Shown piece by piece: positions 1 through 9,604 of a stretch of 64,000 bases of DNA. Origin of the DNA: Desulfuromonadales bacterium. Its GTDB lineage: Bacteria > Desulfobacterota > Desulfuromonadia > Desulfuromonadales > SZUA-540. The first letter of the stretch is position 1; each line of letters begins with the position of its first letter. The notes beneath the pieces were generated by a model that worked only from the letters and a program-made list of their open reading frames with translations, had not been told where the DNA came from and did not search any database. The DNA lies in NCBI GenBank assembly GCA_033549025.1, contig JAWSUS010000012.1:27480-91479 (forward strand), read 5' to 3'. The position numbers and the translations under genes are program-made.

Positions 1-36
1 GGCCTCGTTTCATTTTTAAGCGAAGGCTCCTTGCCT

Positions 37-3000
37 TCAGTCGGGATGAGCCTGCCGGGGGGCTTGCCGATGGCTTGAATGAAGGGGGCAGCTTTGACCG
101 CTGCACTCGCGATTTTCGGGCTGCTGGCGGCAGCCGATGACGGCCTCGGCCCGCAGTGGGATCGGCAGCAGCGGCGCCGACAGTTCGGCGGCAGCTCGCA
201 GGGCGACCCAGCCGTCGCGCCGGCAGCAGCGAGGTGCGTTAAGAGAAGCGATGCGGGCGAGGACCTCCTGGGTCAGCTGCTGAACCTGCTGACGCTGTGC
301 ACCCTTGAGGGGATTGGCTTCGAGCAGAAGGCTGAAGGCGACGCCGACCCCGGTGGCGGCGCCGCAGGCGCCGAGAAAGGCGCAACTGCCGCCGATGACC
401 TTGCTCCCGCGCTGGATGCCGGCCCGGATCTGGCCAGGGGAGATAGGACCGCCGAGATTGCCAAAGGTGGTGAGGATGACGGCCGGTACCAGAGCATGAT
501 GTTCGGGGCCATGGATGGGAATGGCCGGGTGGCGGCGGATCCGGTCGAAGAGGGCGAGCAGATCCGTTTCGCGGCTCTCCAGGCACATCTGCTCAATGAC
601 CTGCAGGGCATCCTGCGAATGGCAGCCGTCGCAGACGAAATGACCGTGCGTGCAGCTGGCGTTGGCGGCAAAACTCTGACCGCAATAGGTGCAGACGGCG
701 GGGCGCTCCTGCGGGAAGTAGTCGAGGGGAGCGCCGCAGACCATGCAGCCGCTGCCGTATTTTATCGTGCTCGGCGCCGAAGGCTGGACCGCCGCTTGAT
801 CGGTCCGGGCTTCCGGCGACAGAGCGCAGCCGCAGCCGGCCCCGAGATCGAGGTTGCTGACAGCCCCCTGGGCGTCGAAGACGAATAGCTGCTTGCCCAG
901 CTGGGTCGCCTCGCTGGCGGCAATCTCCACCTCTGTACCGACAGCGAGGGTCTGGCCGCTGCTGGTAGTGACGCTGGCGAAGGGGCCGCGGTACATGACC
1001 CGCACCTTGGCAGCGGCCTCGGGTTTGCGGGCCTCGAAGGTCAGGGAGAAGAAAGGGTGCCCCTGCACGGTGCGGTAGGGGAAGCGTTTAAGCAGGCGGA
1101 TGTGGGCGAAGCCCTCTTCTTCCAGCAACCCGACTAGATCTTGCTGGGTGAGGGCGCCGCCGATGCATTCGCCATGCAGGGTGGTGTCGTTGCGGATGGC
1201 CCCGCCGGGCTCGCGGTCGCACACCACATCGGCCACGACGAGGCGGCCGCCGGGTTTTAAGGCGCGGAAAATGCCGGCAAAGGTCCGACGCTTGTGACTG
1301 GAGAGATTCAGCACACAGTTGGAGAGGATAACATCGACACTATTTTCGGCCAGAGGTAATTCTTCCAGATAGCCTTTTTCAAAGGTCAGATTGTCGTAGC
1401 CAAGGTTGGCCCGCACACCTTGGGCTCCTCGCCGCGCCAACTCCAGCATGGGATCGAGCATGTCGACTCCGATGGAACGGCCCTCGGCCCCGACCAGGCG
1501 GGCGGCGATAAAGCTCTCGACGCCGCCGCCACAGCCGAGATCGACTACCGTCTCCCCTGGTTGCAGACCAGCGTCCAGCACCGGGCTGCCGCAGCCGTAG
1601 CCCCGAAAGCGGAACTCGGCCGGGATGTGGGCGATAAGGTCCTTGTCATAACAGACGGGGTTAAGTATCTCCTCCTTGCGGTCACCCACCGCGGCGGCGT
1701 AAAAGTCTTTGACGACGCGGCGGCTGTCGTGATTGGCCAGGGAGAGCAGGCAGTTGGCGTGGGTGAGGGCGACAGCGCCATGGGCTCCGCAGCCCTCCAG
1801 TACATCCCCCATCTTCAGACGCAGGCTCGGCCTGTCATCGTCGCGGCTGGGCTCAGCCTCTGAGGCGATAAGCCAAAGCAGGATGTTCTCGTACAGCGGA
1901 ACATAGGGGTCATCCCCTGCAAAGCATCCGCCACGGAGAAAGCTGTGATCGGCATCGCCCCCGCCCGTAAAAAATCGCCAGGGGGAGGGGAGTGTGGCAG
2001 CCGTGGCCTCTCGCAGCTGTCGCAGAGATTCGCCCTGGCGCCAGGCCGTCGCCAAATCTTGGGAAAGCTCGGTGGCCAGCTCTTTCAGGCCGACGGTGGC
2101 GGTCGAGGGATAAAGGCGGCGGTCGGGGCCGATGGCGACGGATTCCCAGCCGCTGTTGCTGCCGTCGTGGAAGGTGCCGACGGGGGCGAAGGCCTGGGTG
2201 CGCAGCGCCTCCAGATTGTCGATGCGGATGCCCCGTGCTTTGGCGCGCTCGGCGGCGAGGCGCAGCTGATGGAAGAGTTCGTTCGGGGGGACAAAGCTTT
2301 CAGCCCCGGCGCGACCGCGCACGAAGTACCAGAGAAAATGGACGTTGGCGGCGCCGACGTCGGCAGCATAATCGATGAGCGCCGGCATATCGGCGACATT
2401 GTCCCGCTCGACGCACATGGAGAGGGTGAAGGGGAGTTCCCGGGCTTTCAGCCACGCAAGCTCGGCGCCGAGGGCGGCAAAGGTTCCCTTGCCCCGGATG
2501 CGGTCGTGTCGCTCCTCCAGACCGTCGACGCTGACCTGCAGATGAAAGCGGGAGAGATCCCAGTCGGCTGTCTCCAGGTGGCGGGACAGCTGCAGGCCGT
2601 TGGTCAGCACGACGACCTGGGTGTCCCGGTAGGCCAGCAGGTCACGGACGATGGTGCCGAAGTGCGGGTGGCTGAAAGGCTCGCCGCCGGTGAGAGCGAA
2701 GACCCGGCAGCCAAGCTCAACCGCTTCGGCGGCCAGCTGGCCCACGTTCTCCAGGGAGAGTTCGTCGGTCGCCTCCGGTCCGGAGGCGAAGAGGCAGTGG
2801 CGGCAGGCCAGGTTGCAGCGGTTGGTCAGGTGAAACCAGAGTTCACGCAAATGTTCGGTCTTGAGGAGGGCGCCACGGCCGGCGTAGCCAGCGCCTTGAA
2901 GGTCGGGCAGCCTCTGCCGGAAACGTTCAGCCTCTAGAGAACAGGGAGAGTCTTCGTTCCGCTGCCAGCCCTGCAGCAGTTCGTCGCCGGCGCGATTGGG

Positions 3001-3087
3001 CACAAACCAGCAGGGCTGGTCGTCACGGACGTAAATAGGCACGTTCTCGAACGTGCAGCGTGTCCACTGGGAGGGATCAAAGGACAT
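37..3087 (-). CDS. Radical SAM / ArsM-like SAM methyltransferase / Cys-rich (DUF5714-like) fusion protein
   Basis: 1016 aa. CNLACRHC radical SAM motif, LTGGEP and SVDG motifs. Methyltransferase motifs GYGCGSP, VVDLGCGGG, SNCVLNL, GECIGGA. C-terminal CxxC/HGPEHH/RCCRR-rich domain. RBS AGGAG upstream. Confidence 0.9.
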   Translation of the reverse strand: MSFDPSQWTRCTFENVPIYVRDDQPCWFVPNRAGDELLQGWQRNEDSPCSLEAERFRQRLPDLQGAGYAGRGALLKTEHLRELWFHLTNRCNLACRHCLFASGPEATDELSLENVGQLAAEAVELGCRVFALTGGEPFSHPHFGTIVRDLLAYRDTQVVVLTNGLQLSRHLETADWDLSRFHLQVSVDGLEERHDRIRGKGTFAALGAELAWLKARELPFTLSMCVERDNVADMPALIDYAADVGAANVHFLWYFVRGRAGAESFVPPNELFHQLRLAAERAKARGIRIDNLEALRTQAFAPVGTFHDGSNSGWESVAIGPDRRLYPSTATVGLKELATELSQDLATAWRQGESLRQLREATAATLPSPWRFFTGGGDADHSFLRGGCFAGDDPYVPLYENILLWLIASEAEPSRDDDRPSLRLKMGDVLEGCGAHGAVALTHANCLLSLANHDSRRVVKDFYAAAVGDRKEEILNPVCYDKDLIAHIPAEFRFRGYGCGSPVLDAGLQPGETVVDLGCGGGVESFIAARLVGAEGRSIGVDMLDPMLELARRGAQGVRANLGYDNLTFEKGYLEELPLAENSVDVILSNCVLNLSSHKRRTFAGIFRALKPGGRLVVADVVCDREPGGAIRNDTTLHGECIGGALTQQDLVGLLEEEGFAHIRLLKRFPYRTVQGHPFFSLTFEARKPEAAAKVRVMYRGPFASVTTSSGQTLAVGTEVEIAASEATQLGKQLFVFDAQGAVSNLDLGAGCGCALSPEARTDQAAVQPSAPSTIKYGSGCMVCGAPLDYFPQERPAVCTYCGQSFAANASCTHGHFVCDGCHSQDALQVIEQMCLESRETDLLALFDRIRRHPAIPIHGPEHHALVPAVILTTFGNLGGPISPGQIRAGIQRGSKVIGGSCAFLGACGAATGVGVAFSLLLEANPLKGAQRQQVQQLTQEVLARIASLNAPRCCRRDGWVALRAAAELSAPLLPIPLRAEAVIGCRQQPENRECSGQSCPLHSSHRQAPRQAHPD

Positions 3088-3323
3088 CGTGGGCTCCTGA
3101 AAAGCGTCAAAACCTAACGGGAAAGGGGATGTTGGGAAAGGTTTTATCTATAGCAGGTATTGAGGGATGGGGGCAAGTCGTGAAAACGGCCTGCAAAGCG
3201 GGAGGACGTGAAAACTTTTTTTCAGCAGCAGGTAAACCTTGGAGGATGGGTACCGTCTAAATTAACAATTCCACGGATGATCTCATCCGCAAAAAAACAT
3301 GAACGAAGAAAAGAGGGAGGTAA

Positions 3324-3719
3324 ATGATGAATGCGAAAAAAGTAATGCTCATTGGTGGTTTGGTGGTGTGTGTCGCTGTTGCCGGTCCCGGCGCCGCGTT
3401 GGCCAAAGGCGGGCAGGGGGGCCAGTCGGGCTCCCGAGCTCAGGGTTCCATGAGTAACGCAAGTTCCATGGGGCAGACGCAGTCCCAGCACCGCTATCAG
3501 AACCAGAATCAGCACCGCTATGAGAATCAGAGCGGCAACGGTCTGCAGCAGAAGGCTGGTGAAGGGGAGGGCACGCAGGATCCGGCCCAGAACCGTTATC
3601 AGAATCGTTACGAGAACAAGAGTGGCACCGCCCAGGAATCTGGTGATCTGGACCGCACCCGCGACCGCATCCAGCTGCGTGATCCTTCTACCCATGAAAC
3701 CACGGAAACGGCGCAGTAA
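3324..3719 (+). CDS. Secreted low-complexity Q/N/G-rich hypothetical protein
   Basis: RBS GGAGG, signal peptide ending ALA, QHRY/QNRY repeats, followed by a terminator hairpin. Confidence 0.8.
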   Translation: MMNAKKVMLIGGLVVCVAVAGPGAALAKGGQGGQSGSRAQGSMSNASSMGQTQSQHRYQNQNQHRYENQSGNGLQQKAGEGEGTQDPAQNRYQNRYENKSGTAQESGDLDRTRDRIQLRDPSTHETTETAQ

Positions 3720-3747
3720 ATCGCCTCAGCCGGAGCCATGCACAAAG

Positions 3748-3786
3748 CGGGGGGAGATGGGCAACCATCTCCCCCCGTTCTTTTTT
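3748..3786. terminator. Intrinsic terminator between convergent genes
   Basis: CGGGGGGAGATGG-GCAA-CCATCTCCCCCCG followed by TTCTTTTTT. Confidence 0.85.
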
Positions 3787-4018
3787 ACCTGCCCCTGATT
3801 GCCTCATCCGCCACCTGGCGGATATCGCCGAGGCATCAACGGCTCCGGGGGTGCAGAGTCTCGCAGCGGCAGCGTCCTTCCCGGTGGGCGAGCAGAACGG
3901 CGGCGAGGATGGTCGAGTGGCCGTGTCGGCGCACATCCTCGCGGATATCGTGGCGGCTGTGGCGAAAGCAGTAGCAGATCAGCTCATCGTCTCCATCGGA
4001 GCCGGTCGGGTTCCCCAT
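3785..4018 (-). CDS. Small BFD-like/[2Fe-2S]-metallochaperone-like probable selenoprotein (77 aa, Sec at UGA 3836-3838)
   Basis: ICYCF...CRCETLHPRSR-(TGA)-CLGDIRQVADEAIRGR-TAA. Read-through restores the family-type CC motif as UC. Hairpin directly after the UGA. Start overlaps the upstream stop (TGATG). Confidence 0.75.
3800..3835 (-). promoter_or_regulatory. Putative bacterial SECIS element
   Basis: mRNA after UGA: UGCCUC-GGCGAU-AUCCGCC-AGGU-GGCGGAU-GAGGCA. 6-bp lower stem, 7-bp upper stem, G-containing apical loop beginning 20 nt after the UGA. Confidence 0.72.
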
Positions 4019-4239
4019 CAGGCTATCCTCTCCAGGCGCACGAACTTGCCGCCTTGGTCATAATACAGGGCAAAACGCCCCTGAATCCCCCGTTCGCTCA
4101 AAAAGGGCCGCAGATGCGCGGCCGGAAACTGCACCCGCGGGCCTTCCTCCGTGGTCACCAGAATCTGCTGAACCTGCCCCTGGTAGTAGCGCAGAAACTG
4201 CTGGCGGTCGATATGGATGGAGAAGCGGCAGCGGGGCAT
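4018..4239 (-). CDS. DUF2835-like small protein
   Basis: 73 aa, FLRYYQG...VQFPAAHLRPF...GIQGRF pattern; operonic with neighbours. Confidence 0.75.
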   Translation of the reverse strand: MPRCRFSIHIDRQQFLRYYQGQVQQILVTTEEGPRVQFPAAHLRPFLSERGIQGRFALYYDQGGKFVRLERIA

Positions 4240-4245
4240 GGCGGC

Positions 4246-5121
4246 TCAGTCCTCGGCGAGGCAGGCTTGAAGCCCTTCGGCGAGGGTCGGATAATCGAGG
4301 CGGATGTCCAGCTTCTCCAGCATCTTGCGGTTTTCCATGCGCCGCGATTCGCTGAGGTAGGAGATCATCAGGGGCGCCATGACCTGGCGGGCCTCTTCCA
4401 TGGGAATCTGTTGCGGGCGGGGGAGGCCGAGAAGATCGGCCACGGCCAGAAAATACTGGGTCATGGTGCCGCCCTGGCCATCGCAGACATTGAAGATGTC
4501 GCCGGCCTCGCCTTTATCCATGGCGGCCAGACAGACGCGGGCCAGATCTTCGGCGTGGATGCGGTTGGTCGGTTTACACTCCTCTTCCCGCAGGAGGGGG
4601 TGTCCCTCCGTCAGGCGGGCGACGGGAAGACGTCCCGGGCCGTAGATGCCGGTGACCCGCAGGATGACCACGGGGACCTGGTGCTCTTTTCCCCAGGCGA
4701 GGAAGGCGTTTTCAGCGTCGAGGCGGCGCCTGGCCCGCGAGGTCTGCGGGTTGGGCGGCGTCTCTTCCGTGACCAGATCATCGCCGCAGTCGCCGTAGAC
4801 GCCGCTGGTGCTGATGTAGACGATTTTGGCCGGTTCCTGCCCCGGCGTGATGGCGGCCAGAAAGTTCCGCACCCGCGGATCGCTGAAGCCGCCGCCCGGC
4901 GGCGGCGCAAAGTAAAAGAGGCCGGCGCCGGCCAGTGGCAGCCCGGTGAGCGATTCGGGGTCGTCGAGGTGCCCGACCAGGGGCGCAATCCCTGCCGCTG
5001 CCAGAGCCTGGCCTTTTTCCTCTTCCCGCACCAGGCCGTGTACCTGTTGCCCCTGGGCCAAGGCCCGGCGGGCGACGCGGCGACCGATATCGCCGCAACC
5101 AATAATGACGATTCTATCCAT
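4246..5121 (-). CDS. NAD-dependent epimerase/dehydratase (atypical SDR, YeeZ-like)
   Basis: IIGCGDIG Rossmann motif, YISTSGVYG, GIYGPGR, NRIHAEDL. Start chosen at MDRIV. Confidence 0.88.
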   Translation of the reverse strand: MDRIVIIGCGDIGRRVARRALAQGQQVHGLVREEEKGQALAAAGIAPLVGHLDDPESLTGLPLAGAGLFYFAPPPGGGFSDPRVRNFLAAITPGQEPAKIVYISTSGVYGDCGDDLVTEETPPNPQTSRARRRLDAENAFLAWGKEHQVPVVILRVTGIYGPGRLPVARLTEGHPLLREEECKPTNRIHAEDLARVCLAAMDKGEAGDIFNVCDGQGGTMTQYFLAVADLLGLPRPQQIPMEEARQVMAPLMISYLSESRRMENRKMLEKLDIRLDYPTLAEGLQACLAED

Positions 5122-5160
5122 GGAGACCATCCTTTTCAAAAGGCGTAAGGGAGTGCGGCC

Positions 5161-7806
5161 TTACGACAGGCTCTTGCTGACGATTTCATAGACGTCGCGG
5201 GAGAGCTTGGGGGCGTCGAGCAGGCGCTGTAGTTGTTCTTTCATCAGCTGCTGGCGGCCGTCGTCGAACTTGCGCCAGCGGATGAGGGCGGCGGCAAGGC
5301 GGGCGGCGACCTGGGGATTGAGAGGATCGAGGGCCAGCACCTGCTCGGCGGTGAAGCGGTAGCCGCTGCCGTCTTCCCGGTGGAAAGCGGCCGGGTTGCC
5401 GTGGCAGAAGGCGCCGATGAGGGCCCGCACCTTGTTGGGGTTGCGCAGGCTGAAAGCCGGATGCGCCATGAGGGCGCGCACCTGCATCAGGGTGTCGGGG
5501 TGGTCGGCGGTGGCCTGCAGGCTCAGCCACTTGTCGACGACGAGGGGGTCCTGGCTCCACTTGGCGTAGAAGGCCGCCAGCGCCCCCTGTCGTTCGGGGC
5601 GGCAGCTGTGTGCCAGGGCGCCGAGAGCGGCAATGACGTCGGTCATGTTGTCTCCCTGCGCGAACTGCCGCTGGCACAGACGGACGGCCTCATCCTCCTC
5701 CAGGGCCATGAGATAGGCGAGACAGACGTTCTTGAGGCTGCGCCGTCCCACCGCCGCCGGCTCGATGCTGTAGGGGCCGGTCTCACCCAGACGCTCATAA
5801 GTATCGAGCAGTTCGGTCCGCCAGCGCCGGGCCAGACTTTGGCGCAGGGCCTGGCGGGCGGCATGGATAGCCGCCGGGTCGACCACGGTCATCTGTTCGG
5901 CCAGGTAGGTTTCACTCGGCAAGGTCAGGGCGAGGGCAAGCAGGGCCGGATCGGCCTCGCGATCCTGCAGGGTCAGGCCGAAGGCTTCGCTGAAAACCTC
6001 GGCCTCCCCCGGCGTGCGTCCCTGACTGAGATCCTCGACCAGGCCCAGCAGTACCCTGGTGGCCAGCTGCTGGCCGGCTTCCCAGCGGTTGAAGGGGTCC
6101 GCATCCCGGGCCATGAGAAAGGCGAGGTCGGCGTCGGCCAGGTCGATCTGCAGCTTGACCGGGGCCGAAAAGTCCCGCAGCAGTGAGGGGACGGGTTCTT
6201 CCGTAAGACCGACAAAGCGGAAGCTCTCCTCTTCCTGACGCAGGTTGAGCACCCGGGTGCCGGCGGCGGGGGGAGCGGTCTCCCCTTCGAGCTGCAGAGG
6301 GAGGTCGTTGCCCTGGCGGTCGAGCAGACCCAGGGCCAGGGGGATATGGAAAGGCTGCTTGCTCTCCTGTCCCGGTGTCGGCGGGCAGGACTGGCGGCAG
6401 CGCAGGGTGTAGACGCCGCCGGCCGGGTCGAACGCTGTGGTGACCTGAATCTCCGGGGTGCCAGCCTGGCTGTACCAGCGGCGGAACTGTGCGAGGTCGG
6501 CGCCGTTGGCGTCGGCCATAGCCGCCAGAAAATCCTCGGTGGTGACGGCCTGGCCGTCGTGGCGCTCGATGTAAAGATCCATCCCCCGGCGGAAGCCCTC
6601 GCGACCGAGCAGGGTCTGGATCATGCGAATAACTTCGGCCCCTTTGTTGTAGACCGTGGCCGTGTAGAAGTTGTTGATCTCCACGTAGGATTCGGGCCGC
6701 ACGGGGTGCGCCATGGGGCCGGCGTCCTCGGGGAACTGGGCCTGGCGCAGGATGCGCACTTCCTCAATGCGTTTGACGGGCCGCGAGGTCATGTCAGCGG
6801 AGAACTCCTGGTCGCGAAAGACGGTGAGCCCTTCCTTGAGGCTGAGCTGAAACCAGTCGCGGCAGGTGATGCGGTTGCCGGTCCAGTTGTGGAAGTATTC
6901 GTGGCCGATGACCCCCTCGATCCCCTGATAGTCGGCGTCGGTGGCGGTATCGGGCCGAGCCAGCACGTACTTGGAGTTGAAGACGTTGAGCCCCTTGTTC
7001 TCCATGGCGCCCATGTTGAAGTCGTCCACCGCCACGATCATGTAGATGTCCAGATCGTATTCGAGGCCGAAGATCTCCTCGTCCCAGGCCATGGCTTTCT
7101 GCAGGGAACGCATGGCGTGTTCGCACTTGTCGGCGTTGCGCGGCTCCACGAAGATCTGCAGGGTGACCACACGGCCGGAGCGGGTCGTGAAGCGGTCCTC
7201 GATTTTGACCAGCTGGCCGGCGACCAGGGCGAAGAGGTAGGACGGCTTCTTGTAGGGATCCTGCCAGCGCGCGAAGTGGCGGCCGCCATCGAGCTCGCCT
7301 TTCTCCATCAGATTGCCGTTGGACAGCAGCACAGGATACTTGGCGCGGTCGGCGACGAGGGTGACGGTGAAAGGCGCCATGACGTCGGGACGGTCGGGAT
7401 AGTAGGTGATCTTGCGAAACCCCTGGGCTTCGCACTGGGTGCAGAAGTTGCCGCTGGACAGATAGAGCCCCTCCAGCGAGGTGTTCGCCTGCGGATCGAT
7501 CTCGGTGACGGTGCGCAGGGTGAAGGCGTCGGGCACCTCGGCCAGGGCCAGGGTTTCCGCGTCGAGCGCATAGGCGGTCGTCGGCAGGGGACGCTCGTCC
7601 AGGCTGATTTCCCGCAGTTTCAGTTCCCGCCCGTGCAGCACCAGCGGAGCGGCGGGGTCGACACCGGCCGGGTTGCGGCGCAGACGCAGGGTCGCGGTGA
7701 CCAGAGTCTGCGATTCGGCCAGCTCGAAATGCAGGTCGGTGTTATCGACCAGAAAGGCCGGGGGGGTGTAATCCTTGAGATAAATCGTGGTGGGTCGGTT
7801 GGTCAT
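5161..7806 (-). CDS. pepN: Aminopeptidase N (M1 family)
   Basis: GAMENKGLN and HEYFHNWTGNR zinc motifs, NNFYT, C-terminal NPNKVRAL. Confidence 0.97.
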   Translation of the reverse strand: MTNRPTTIYLKDYTPPAFLVDNTDLHFELAESQTLVTATLRLRRNPAGVDPAAPLVLHGRELKLREISLDERPLPTTAYALDAETLALAEVPDAFTLRTVTEIDPQANTSLEGLYLSSGNFCTQCEAQGFRKITYYPDRPDVMAPFTVTLVADRAKYPVLLSNGNLMEKGELDGGRHFARWQDPYKKPSYLFALVAGQLVKIEDRFTTRSGRVVTLQIFVEPRNADKCEHAMRSLQKAMAWDEEIFGLEYDLDIYMIVAVDDFNMGAMENKGLNVFNSKYVLARPDTATDADYQGIEGVIGHEYFHNWTGNRITCRDWFQLSLKEGLTVFRDQEFSADMTSRPVKRIEEVRILRQAQFPEDAGPMAHPVRPESYVEINNFYTATVYNKGAEVIRMIQTLLGREGFRRGMDLYIERHDGQAVTTEDFLAAMADANGADLAQFRRWYSQAGTPEIQVTTAFDPAGGVYTLRCRQSCPPTPGQESKQPFHIPLALGLLDRQGNDLPLQLEGETAPPAAGTRVLNLRQEEESFRFVGLTEEPVPSLLRDFSAPVKLQIDLADADLAFLMARDADPFNRWEAGQQLATRVLLGLVEDLSQGRTPGEAEVFSEAFGLTLQDREADPALLALALTLPSETYLAEQMTVVDPAAIHAARQALRQSLARRWRTELLDTYERLGETGPYSIEPAAVGRRSLKNVCLAYLMALEEDEAVRLCQRQFAQGDNMTDVIAALGALAHSCRPERQGALAAFYAKWSQDPLVVDKWLSLQATADHPDTLMQVRALMAHPAFSLRNPNKVRALIGAFCHGNPAAFHREDGSGYRFTAEQVLALDPLNPQVAARLAAALIRWRKFDDGRQQLMKEQLQRLLDAPKLSRDVYEIVSKSLS

Positions 7807-7988
7807 GGACATTCCTTCTCTGTGCGGGTGGCAATGAAAAGAGGTTCCTGTCAGAGGGTGAGCCCGCTATTTTTCAGCCGCCCCTGACATAAATAAAAAA
7901 AATGGTAAGATTTACAAATTGTAATGAAGGCCCGATAAGGCCTTTCGTTGTTTTGTCAACAGACGTGATTATCGCAGGAGGCCAATGA

Positions 7989-8762
7989 ATGAACAAGAGG
8001 ATTGTCGGATTAATGGTGTGGCTGTTGCTGGTGATGCTGGTCGGGGCGGCGGGGGCGGAAACCTTCGGCATGAAGCAGAAGCGCCCCAAGCTGCATGAAT
8101 ACGGCTCTGTCGTCATGAACAACTACTCCGAGCAGAAGAACATCGCGCCCGTCGTTTTTCCCCATTGGGTGCACCGGGCCAGGTACACCTGCCGCCTCTG
8201 TCATGTGGATATCGGCTTCGCCATGACGGCCGAAGGGACGCAGATGACGGAGACGGACAATATCAACGGTCTCTATTGCGGTGCCTGTCACAACGGCCAG
8301 GAAGCTTTTTCCGTCGCCAAGGCAGAAAAAAACTGCGATCGCTGCCACTCCTACGGCAAGAACGTGCTGTTCAAGAACAACTTCTACGATTTCCGCAAAA
8401 AGATGCCTAAAGAGCGGTTCGGCAACGGCATCGACTGGCTTAAGGCCGAAGACGAGGGGCTGGTCACGGTCAAGGACTACCTCGAGGGTGTCTCCATCTC
8501 TCGGGCCAAAATCAAGGAGCCGGATAAATTCGATCTGACCCCCACTGAGCCGAACATGCCCAATATCATCCTGTCCCACCAGAAGCATGTGGTGTGGAAC
8601 GGCTGCGAACTCTGTCATCCCGAGATCTTCCCCGTCAAGAAGAGCACCCAGACCTACAGTATGCAGGACATCTTCAACGGCAAATACTGCGGGGTCTGCC
8701 ACGATACGGTGGCGTTCCCCAATATCGACTGCCAGCGCTGTCATACCCAGCCGGTGCATTGA
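7989..8762 (+). CDS. Hexaheme c7-type (two triheme repeat) periplasmic cytochrome c
   Basis: Signal peptide; six CxxCH (CRLCH, CGACH, CDRCH, CELCH, CGVCH, CQRCH); FPHWVH. Confidence 0.93.
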   Translation: MNKRIVGLMVWLLLVMLVGAAGAETFGMKQKRPKLHEYGSVVMNNYSEQKNIAPVVFPHWVHRARYTCRLCHVDIGFAMTAEGTQMTETDNINGLYCGACHNGQEAFSVAKAEKNCDRCHSYGKNVLFKNNFYDFRKKMPKERFGNGIDWLKAEDEGLVTVKDYLEGVSISRAKIKEPDKFDLTPTEPNMPNIILSHQKHVVWNGCELCHPEIFPVKKSTQTYSMQDIFNGKYCGVCHDTVAFPNIDCQRCHTQPVH

Positions 8763-8821
8763 TCCGACGCGGGCGGGCCGCCGGTCCGCCCGCGCCACAG
8801 ACCTGAGGGATGAAATAGCGT

Positions 8822-9598
8822 ATGGGAACGATAAGGTCAAGATGGGTCCGGATACTGGGCTGGTGCGTCCTGGGCCTCCTCTGGGCGGAGACGGGGCCGG
8901 CGGCGGGTAAGTACTGGGATTTTCCGCCGCTGCCGGCTCCCCATGAATACGGCAATGTCCTGATTAGCCGGATTTCGGTGGAGAACAAGATCAAGCCGGT
9001 GCTCTTCCCCCACTGGAGTCATCGGGCCCGATTCAGCTGTCGGGTTTGTCACTTTGAGCTCGATTTCGCCTTTGCCACCAACAAAACGGAGATCACCGAG
9101 GCCGAGAATCGCAACGGTCTCTACTGCGGCTCCTGTCATGACGGAGAGCGGGCGTTCGGCCATACGGAAGGCAACTGTGAACGGTGTCACTCCGGTTACG
9201 GTTCGACGGATGCGGAGAAATTCGAAGCTTTCAGGCGGCCCCTGCCGTCGGCGCCTTTCGGCAACAAGATCCACTGGGGCTATGCCCTGGAAGACGGGCT
9301 TATCAGGCCGGCCTACAGCCTTTTTCATGCGGACGAAAAACCGATGGATTTCGACCGTGAGCTGGAACTACAGGCCGAATGGACCTATGTGCCGCCGGCG
9401 TACTTTCCCCATGCCAAACACACGCCCTGGCTCGATTGCGCCAACTGCCACCCGGACATCTTCAACGTCAAGAAGAAGACGACCCAGCATTTTTCCATGG
9501 AATATATACTCGAAGGCAAGTTCTGCGGGGTCTGTCACCTGCGGGTGGCGTTCCCCCTGGACGATTGCAAGGGGTGCCATCCGCGCATTTCCCGCTAA
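8822..9598 (+). CDS. Hexaheme c7-type cytochrome c, paralogue of upstream gene
   Basis: Six CxxCH (CRVCH, CGSCH, CERCH, CANCH, CGVCH, CKGCH); same layout as 7989-8762. Confidence 0.93.
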   Translation: MGTIRSRWVRILGWCVLGLLWAETGPAAGKYWDFPPLPAPHEYGNVLISRISVENKIKPVLFPHWSHRARFSCRVCHFELDFAFATNKTEITEAENRNGLYCGSCHDGERAFGHTEGNCERCHSGYGSTDAEKFEAFRRPLPSAPFGNKIHWGYALEDGLIRPAYSLFHADEKPMDFDRELELQAEWTYVPPAYFPHAKHTPWLDCANCHPDIFNVKKKTTQHFSMEYILEGKFCGVCHLRVAFPLDDCKGCHPRISR

Positions 9599-9604
9599 CA
9601 AAGG

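Follow-up and report, generated by a model that had tools for sequence, protein, structure and literature searches.

The gene at positions 37..3087 on the minus strand of a stretch of Desulfuromonadales bacterium DNA (contig JAWSUS010000012.1) encodes a protein of 1016 amino acids (aa), in which a radical S-adenosylmethionine (SAM) module is fused to an ArsM-type methyltransferase and to the cysteine-rich domain DUF5714. The whole stretch of 64,000 nucleotides (nt) is termed the window, and its numbering is used for positions given without a contig or locus. G, g, L, and P followed by a number denote genomes, genera, loci, and proteins in this analysis, the contig being C12 and its own genome G000. 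The fusion is a candidate single-protein route to carbon-arsenic compounds, that is, a candidate organoarsenical synthase, to which a probability of approximately one half is assigned. The most economical reading is that methylation of the ArsM type is coupled, in one protein, to formation of a carbon-arsenic bond by radical SAM chemistry. The putative role of the protein is likely to methylate trivalent arsenic and to add a further SAM-derived carbon group by radical chemistry, and it likely functions in place of the separate ArsS carried by most related bacteria. In function it would parallel ArsS (with or without ArsM), on a scaffold derived from a peptide-maturase-like radical SAM enzyme. 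A preliminary description of this DNA had proposed a single enzyme that methylates arsenic and also modifies it by a radical route. The domain reading behind that proposal stands. The radical SAM domain is not a relative of ArsS, and ArsL is absent among its 25 best NCBIfam matches. The idea of one enzyme gains indirect support because fusion with ArsM is recurrent in both orders, nearly excludes ArsS, and has neighbouring gene families in common with it.

The open reading frame (ORF), its translation, and full-length homologues define the order of an RRE-like domain, radical SAM core, SPASM-like region, ArsM-like methyltransferase, CGC linker, and DUF5714. The methyltransferase comprises residues 470-750 (838..1680, minus strand), as identified by phmmer, NCBIfam, and Pfam. 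Three cysteine motifs of the arsenic type are located here, namely C499 in GYGCGSP (496-502), C591 in SNCVLNL (589-595), and C641 in GECIGGA (639-645). Pfam assigned residues 510-659 to Methyltransf_31 with 101 bits, and Methyltransf_11 and Methyltransf_25 were also matched. In phmmer, residues 482-670 were aligned with residues 55-253 of CmArsM (4fr0/4kw7) at E 9e-38. Counted along this alignment, C499, C591, and C641 fall on Cys72, Cys174, and Cys224, which we take to be the As(III)-binding residues of CmArsM. Binding of As(III) by conserved cysteines of ArsM is described in the portion consulted of a bioRxiv preprint on ArsL. All of the 40 close homologues have the triad unchanged. Of the 48 distant representatives that cover all three sites, 45 retain it, forms with the methyltransferase ahead of the radical SAM module among them, and only P0242, P0252, and P0279 do not. 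C479, present in 33 of the 40 close homologues, is variable in the wider family and lies outside the CmArsM alignment, the fourth cysteine of CmArsM being Cys44. The preliminary description had recognised a class I methyltransferase with these three motifs, as Pfam and the translation confirm, and had equated the motifs with the arsenic-binding cysteines of ArsM, in agreement with the alignment and conservation above. It had also considered, as a result that would speak against it, a non-ArsM methyltransferase with unconserved cysteines; instead, the triad is conserved and the closest solved and named relatives of the domain are all arsenic methyltransferases.

The same architecture was observed throughout the close relatives. 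The 120 best of 663 database matches are all 943-1109 aa long, contain the same three Pfam families, and display 53-89% identity, being named only "DUF5714 domain-containing protein" or "methyltransferase type 11". Since all 120 are full-length with these families, the fusion is not a chance join. A genome collection with one genome per species contained 217 matching stretches, distributed over Desulfuromonadales, Desulfobacterales, Maridesulfovibrio, Chlorobium/Prosthecochloris, Victivallales, Pirellulales, Nitrospiraceae, and others, and comparison of residues 1-470 with 1.84 billion representatives gave 111 clusters at E ≤ 1e-30. Architectures were surveyed by scanning 150 proteins with our own hidden Markov models (HMMs) of the three domains. 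The query was retained together with 70 of the 150 proteins, which matched the radical SAM module over at least 330 profile positions with at least 150 bits. Among these 71 rows, the order radical SAM, methyltransferase, DUF5714 occurs in 22, radical SAM followed by methyltransferase alone in 22, and the swapped order of methyltransferase before radical SAM in 3, while 24 contain the radical SAM module only, several of them clearly fragments. Relatives of this module are therefore mostly joined to an ArsM-like domain, in both orders, and the CxxxCxxC and GGE motifs are intact in all three fused architectures. A quick maximum-likelihood tree displayed two well-supported halves, one into which 20 of the 22 three-domain rows fall, this protein among them, and the other with most two-domain rows and every swapped row. 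Split-gene forms were also considered and rejected: most short matches with only the radical SAM module or only DUF5714 were fragments on short contigs, the ends of which do not fall at cysteines. Six genomes (G166, G172, G186, G214, G292, and G274) each encode two full-length fusion paralogues, at approximately 59% and 43% identity to this protein. In the literature, judged partly from titles and abstract openings, nothing was found on a radical SAM/ArsM fusion or on DUF5714.

The distribution of the fusion relative to ArsS was counted by searching the same 301 genomes of the class for each gene. The fusion was found in 74 genomes, of which 72 have an NF008823 match inside an ORF of at least 600 aa, one has a split gene, and one a contig-end fragment. 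ArsS (TIGR04167) was found in 179, with 176 above the cut-off. Only five genomes contain both genes (G000, G120, G041, G215, and G246); 69 contain the fusion without ArsS, 174 ArsS without the fusion, and 53 neither. It can be observed that the fusion and ArsS are almost mutually exclusive in these related genomes, ArsS being present in 174 of the 227 that lack the fusion. The alternation recurs within at least four genera (g15, g20, g59, and g62), and therefore does not reflect one ancient split. The strength of this exclusion makes the hypothesis directly testable. Outside the class, ArsS occurs in 2 of 10 fusion-bearing genomes, lineages for which there is no baseline. Stand-alone ArsM-like genes are present in approximately 43 of the 301 genomes, 3 of which also carry the fusion.

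The fusion and ArsS also have accessory neighbour families in common, namely VTT/DedA, DUF2064/TIGR04282, DUF3047, and DUF547. Neighbours were counted within 3 kb at 80 fusion loci, many of which end early at contig edges, and none was universal. DUF2064/TIGR04282-like genes were found at 15 of the 80 loci (on the strand of the fusion, 9 immediately downstream and 4 upstream), VTT/DedA genes at 13 (9 of them immediately upstream and on that strand too), DUF3047 at 6, and DUF547 at 3, and the gene order VTT, fusion, DUF2064 was observed in L053 and L058. Furthermore, among the 150 of 317 TIGR04282 matches listed, those above the cut-off place such a gene no more than 4 kb from the fusion in at least 13 of the 74 genomes with the fusion. 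For ArsS, 21 loci were probed with HMMs built from the fusion neighbours, 20 of them chosen from a range of genera and one from the own genome. The same VTT subfamily was found at 9 of the 21, DUF3047 at 2, and DUF2064-like and DUF547 genes at 1 each.

The radical SAM part of the protein comprises three regions. Residues 1-65 (2893..3087, minus strand) are predicted, from an AlphaFold2 (AF2) model and structural alignments, to form an RRE/PqqD-like winged helix. In the model, strands at 8-13, 16-21, and 27-30 are followed by helices at 32-42 and 51-59, and this predicted strand-strand-strand-helix-helix order of residues 8-59 fits a PqqD-like RRE fold. A WFVPNxAGD motif is conserved here, and W27 hardly varies across the wide family. 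The radical SAM core, residues 80-300 (2188..2850, minus strand; Pfam PF04055), matches Radical_SAM over residues 87-240 with 65.7 bits. It contains the CxxxCxxC motif of C91, C95, and C98 and the TGGEP SAM motif at 133-137, and C91/C95/C98 and G134-P137 are invariant in both close and wide homologue alignments. The CxxxCxxC motif that the preliminary description had placed at 2794-2817 is the same one, since C91, C95, and C98 map to nt 2817-2794. Subsequently, residues 301-465 (1693..2187, minus strand) form a SPASM/twitch-like C-terminal extension, assigned through structural alignment to CteB, anSME, and SuiB (Z 26-28). This extension contains only C388, C433, and C446, of which C433 and C446 are conserved solely among close homologues. 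It has no auxiliary-cluster cysteine motif, none of its cysteines being conserved in the wide family. No Pfam family was matched on residues 250-470, PF13186 included.

For residues 1-470, the best of the NCBIfam matches are generic SPASM/twitch-type families at approximately 60-76 bits. The AF2 model of the radical SAM module has a pLDDT of 91.7, and Foldseek matched it to SPASM/twitch structures at E 7e-16. In structural alignments with VIA, the sactipeptide maturase CteB (5wgg) gave Z 28.4 with a root-mean-square deviation of 3.5 over 388 residues (model 6-414, chain 2-450), and TigE (8vpo) gave Z 24.6 from model residue 1 to 419. The N-terminal domain of CteB is a PqqD-like RRE. For anSME (Z 26.5), the alignment starts only at model residue 79. 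Sequence identity of the module to maturases of the CteB/TigE type is only 12-17%.

Beyond the methyltransferase, the CGC linker motif at residues 752-754 (826..834, minus strand) is recognised from homologue conservation, C754 being shared by 40 of 40 homologues and C752 by 35 of 40. DUF5714 follows at residues 778-1005 (73..756, minus strand), supported by Pfam PF18978, NF045648, AF2, and conservation of cysteine and histidine. PF18978 matches residues 831-1002 with 192 bits against a gathering cut-off of 26.2, over positions 1-172 of its 173. The linker and the very cysteine-rich C-terminal domain of the preliminary description are thereby located. In the layout of the domain, a CxxC...CxxC hairpin (C781, C784, C799, and C802) precedes C812/H816/C819/C822/H823, and the helical part carries GGxCAFxGxCGAA (C902 and C908), an RCC dyad (C954 and C955), and then C986/C995/C1000. 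Approximately 17 cysteine and histidine positions of the domain are invariant or almost so, the vicinal C954-C955 among them. In the AF2 model (pLDDT 89), a helical bundle is predicted after the hairpin. A Foldseek comparison with the PDB had no match at E ≤ 0.001, and the protein atlas gave no usable match. A wide VIA comparison gave only middling matches, headed by CyuA (9fsl, Z 6.2) and the split-Soret cytochrome (1h21, Z 6.1, 19% identity), both of which are iron or Fe-S proteins. A sub-threshold Pfam match to C_GCAxxG_C_C was obtained on residues 898-956 at E 0.009. A complex prediction of residues 1-750 with DUF5714 (775-1005) scored 0.00, a value that weighs neither way on binding.

MbdU (NF045648), a double selenoprotein that binds metal, resembles the fusion in that its model aligns with the C-terminal 230 residues at 132-138 bits, far below the cut-off of 600. 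The vicinal CC of the fusion is placed at the "CU" motif of MbdU by reading rather than by an alignment of the two motifs. In contrast to MbdU, the fusion has no selenocysteine, since there is no in-frame TGA in its gene. Selenocysteine forms among relatives were also considered and rejected: TGAs had been reported in 8 relatives, and in the 6 inspected all lay at approximately residue 1004, where they are the ordinary stop. Stand-alone DUF5714 loci were also compared, and no common neighbour was found among 16. Two genomes of the same genus (L153 316-6904 and L146) have a 320-aa stand-alone DUF5714 in one cluster with genes for a NifU-like Fe-S scaffold, a radical SAM protein of 318 aa, a PadR regulator, and a methyltransferase of 230 aa without the ArsM cysteines. 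This cluster looks like a loose, split echo of the order radical SAM, methyltransferase, DUF5714, and its NifU scaffold is a hint of a possible Fe-S centre in DUF5714. In a single case (G217:C3:34762-36804), a stand-alone DUF5714 gene immediately precedes a true ArsS, with both on one strand.

The fusion can be compared with several known systems. In the portions consulted of PMC13598754 and two bioRxiv preprints, ArsS adenosylates dimethylated trivalent arsenic (DMAs(III)), ArsL transfers a 3-amino-3-carboxypropyl (ACP) moiety to As(III) held by the cysteine motif RCCLKC, and in the arsinothricin pathway ArsM methylates the product of ArsL. With ArsM/AS3MT (CmArsM 4fr0/4fs8/4kw7), the fusion has in common the class I methyltransferase fold and the three arsenic-binding cysteines in register. 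It differs in that the domain lies inside a 1016-aa protein, scores below all NCBIfam ArsM cut-offs, and has no ars genes adjacent in the examined stretch; its N-terminal C479 varies in the wider fusion family. Similar to ArsS, an arsenosugar radical SAM (seleno)protein, it links a radical SAM enzyme to an ArsM-type methyltransferase, in addition to the common neighbours and complementary distribution. Unlike ArsS, it displays no specific homology, no cysteine- or selenocysteine-rich DUF3641 tail among Pfam matches at E ≤ 0.1, and a radical SAM architecture that is RRE-like and SPASM-like. The RCC of DUF5714 (R953, C954, and C955, the dyad being nearly invariant) resembles the RCCLKC of ArsL, as a resemblance only. 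In ArsL that motif is a C-terminal tail, and ArsL and ArsM are separate small proteins, whereas the fusion has no such tail and its RCC lies 500 residues after the radical SAM module. The best structural matches, extending over approximately 390 residues, are CteB and TigE, which are SPASM/twitch maturases bearing an N-terminal RRE; in contrast to them, the fusion has neither auxiliary-cluster cysteines nor an adjacent precursor gene.

A sequence of events can be proposed for the fusion as an organoarsenical synthase. As(III) would first be bound on C499, C591, and C641 and methylated with SAM as in ArsM. Subsequently, a radical generated at the [4Fe-4S]/SAM site would attack the arsenic. If ArsS is a guide, this radical would most likely be 5'-deoxyadenosyl, and the product would resemble DDMAA (5'-deoxy-5'-dimethylarsinoyl-adenosine). 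DUF5714 and the CGC linker may bind or hand over the metalloid, or may hold an Fe-S or other metal centre that supplies electrons. The product could then pass to the proteins of the DUF2064/TIGR04282, TIGR04283, and VTT-type genes. The fusion is common in anaerobes, given the 74 of 301 class genomes and the 217 stretches of the species-level collection. ArsS and ArsL were both discovered in aerobes or soil bacteria. To our knowledge, only these two enzymes form carbon-arsenic bonds by radical chemistry. If the proposal is true, the fusion represents a third, independently evolved radical route to such bonds. Arsenosugar- or arsenolipid-type compounds of anoxic sediments, the setting with the most mobile arsenic, would then have in it a likely source, and enzymologists would gain a methyltransferase and a radical enzyme in one chain.

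Several observations weigh against this proposal. Every NCBIfam ArsM model remains below its cut-off, with 209.6 bits against 263 for NF008823, 161.4 against 500 for NF040538 (methyl_ArsM, matched over profile positions 168-345 and including part of the ArsM C-terminal domain), and 106.5 against 400 for NF038099 (AsSugarArsM). With 40 distant relatives aligned, C91, C95, and C98 are the sole invariant cysteines of the whole radical SAM module, and because there is no conserved cysteine beyond this cluster triad in the wide family, the module, in contrast to ArsS and ArsL, lacks an obvious site for arsenic. The preliminary description had framed this domain in terms of ArsS and ArsL, a comparison that our results do not bear out. 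The ArsS model TIGR04167 gives the module 52-54 bits against a cut-off of 300 and ranks 23rd, BLASTP against the ArsS of the own genome aligns only 47 residues around the cluster and GGE motifs, and the ArsL family is absent among the best 25 of 55 NCBIfam matches to residues 1-470. Among solved structures, the peptide maturases CteB and TigE come nearest to the fold predicted in the model, their N-terminal domain included. Moreover, neither an ars gene nor an accessory gene lies beside the fusion in the examined part of the window. The earlier statement that no ars operon is adjacent holds for this stretch, which comprises a Pfam scan of 15.5 kb past the 3' end of the fusion, without any ars family, and the ORFs of window 1-9600, judged by eye only. 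The own genome contains both ArsS and the fusion, so that replacement of one by the other fails here, and the related genomes are non-independent samples. A stand-alone ArsM-like gene (E ≤ 1e-35) is present in only 34 of the 174 genomes with ArsS and without the fusion, and pairing of ArsS with ArsM is therefore not the rule in the class. Finally, TIGR04282 is nearly universal, being carried by 272 of the 301 genomes. It does not discriminate and was dropped as a phyletic marker; its presence in a genome says little, and only its position beside the fusion counts.

An alternative is an ordinary anaerobic arsenite methyltransferase, active in detoxification or volatilisation, in which the radical SAM module and DUF5714 provide redox support, arsenic delivery, or regulation and no carbon-arsenic bond is formed. 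Redox support would consist of re-reducing the ArsM cysteines or supplying electrons. Such a role would agree with the ArsM triad as the best-supported functional feature, with the weak resemblance of DUF5714 to Fe-S or iron-centre domains (CyuA 9fsl, 1h21, C_GCAxxG_C_C), and with a radical SAM module that has no conserved arsenic-binding cysteine of its own. It is unlikely. A full radical SAM module with CxxxCxxC and GGE is kept in three architectures, which would be costly for a helper; near-exclusion with ArsS is unexpected for a plain ArsM, and the ars resistance genes are not adjacent to the fusion here. A more elaborate version of the organoarsenical synthase is likewise doubtful. Here, the enzyme would be an organoarsenic assembly line on a peptide-maturase scaffold, with an RRE-like domain that docks the protein's own CGC/DUF5714 arm instead of a leader peptide. 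The arm would act as a swinging carrier of As(III) between the ArsM and radical SAM sites, and the carbon-arsenic route would have an evolutionary origin separate from those of ArsS and ArsL.

Another thiophilic element (Se, Te, Sb, or Hg) could be the substrate of the same cysteine triad, a possibility regarded as quite improbable. NCBIfam contains ArsM-type domains joined to several cysteine- or selenocysteine-rich metal-binding modules (ArsM_AhpD_UU, ArsM_DUF2284_UU, and MbdU), a small cysteine-rich ORF with an in-frame TGA lies 0.7 kb upstream of the fusion, and the absence of adjacent ars genes points in the same direction. Arsenic is nonetheless favoured, since the complementary distribution and common neighbours are with ArsS, the tested substrate of which is DMAs(III), and the nearest solved or named relatives of the methyltransferase are all arsenic enzymes. 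A maturase of peptides or proteins, of the type acting on ribosomally synthesised and post-translationally modified peptides (RiPPs), in which the RRE-like domain binds a peptide that the radical SAM module modifies and the methyltransferase methylates, is very improbable: the top structural matches are CteB and TigE, with N-terminal domains included, and the best NCBIfam matches are SPASM-type maturases, but within 700 nt of the fusion at the 80 loci no precursor-type small ORF recurs across lineages, the SPASM auxiliary-cluster cysteines are absent, the N-terminal 80-85 residues have neither a Pfam match at E ≤ 10 nor a meaningful PDB match with a 27-sequence profile, and the ArsM cysteine triad is left without a role. 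The best small-ORF cluster, at 9 of the 80 loci, was rejected as an out-of-frame shadow of the neighbouring gene.

Other arsenic-related genes of the own genome are unlinked to the fusion, including ArsS, TIGR04282, TIGR04283, and Acr3. The fusion is the only ArsM-like gene of this genome, with 212 bits; the next match is an ArsR-fused methyltransferase at 65 bits. A true ArsS (360-365 bits) with one in-frame TGA, which corresponds to the selenocysteine form, is located on contig C2 (G000:C2:22303-26343; L103 6304-10344), where Acr3 is also found. This ArsS is followed by a 725-aa fusion of VTT/DedA with an FAD disulfide reductase similar to MerA and lipoamide dehydrogenase, and then by a DUF547-like ORF. 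Because a true ArsS is present and the fusion is the sole ArsM-like gene, the fusion may also supply methylated arsenic to ArsS in this genome. TIGR04282 lies beside tolQRAB on contig C11. TIGR04283, the "arsenosugar biosynthesis glycosyltransferase" (185 bits against a cut-off of 182), is located on contig C6 (G000:C6:59289-64433; L133 228-3008; L096 1087-3331) in the order metK, TIGR04283, hotdog thioesterase, a fusion of ArsR-HTH with a class I methyltransferase, and ahcY (adenosylhomocysteinase). This gene of the arsenosugar set is thus embedded among SAM-cycle genes. TIGR04290 was not above its cut-off in the own genome.

At its own locus, the fusion gene looks monocistronic, because a hairpin and a convergent feoB lie on its 3' side and a divergent small ORF lies upstream. 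The preliminary description had placed the domains in one polypeptide, and 37..3087 is one intact gene on the minus strand, an unbroken frame of 1016 codons. It starts with the ATG at 3087, the same methionine being used by homologues, and a Shine-Dalgarno-like AGGAG (3094..3098, minus strand), read from the sequence, is situated 6 nt ahead. The hairpin is a terminator-like site of 16 bp, rich in G+C, the 3' end of which occupies 1..10 of the window (contig C12:27454-27489; L008 15455-15490; no strand assigned), 27 nt past the fusion stop and between the fusion and feoB, as identified by Pfam. An Rfam scan of the whole window returned no family. The divergent ORF at 3324..3719 (plus strand, 131 aa) has a signal-peptide-like start and Q/N-rich repeats of "NRYENQ/K". 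Beyond it, at 3785-4018 on the minus strand, the small ORF of 77 codons with the in-frame TGA carries the cysteine-rich motifs CYC, CRC, and UC; it is on the same strand as the fusion, with the divergent ORF in between. An archaeal-type S-adenosylmethionine synthetase (PF01941, 508 bits; G000:C12:22777-23982, plus strand; L008 10778-11983) lies 3.5 kb past the 3' end of the fusion. It is a second SAM synthetase, besides the bacterial metK on contig C6, and stands near an enzyme with two SAM-using domains; this linkage was not conserved across the 80 related loci. Further along the window, at 7989-9598 (plus strand), two adjacent paralogous ORFs of approximately 257 aa contain several CxxCH motifs and were taken by eye for multihaem cytochromes.

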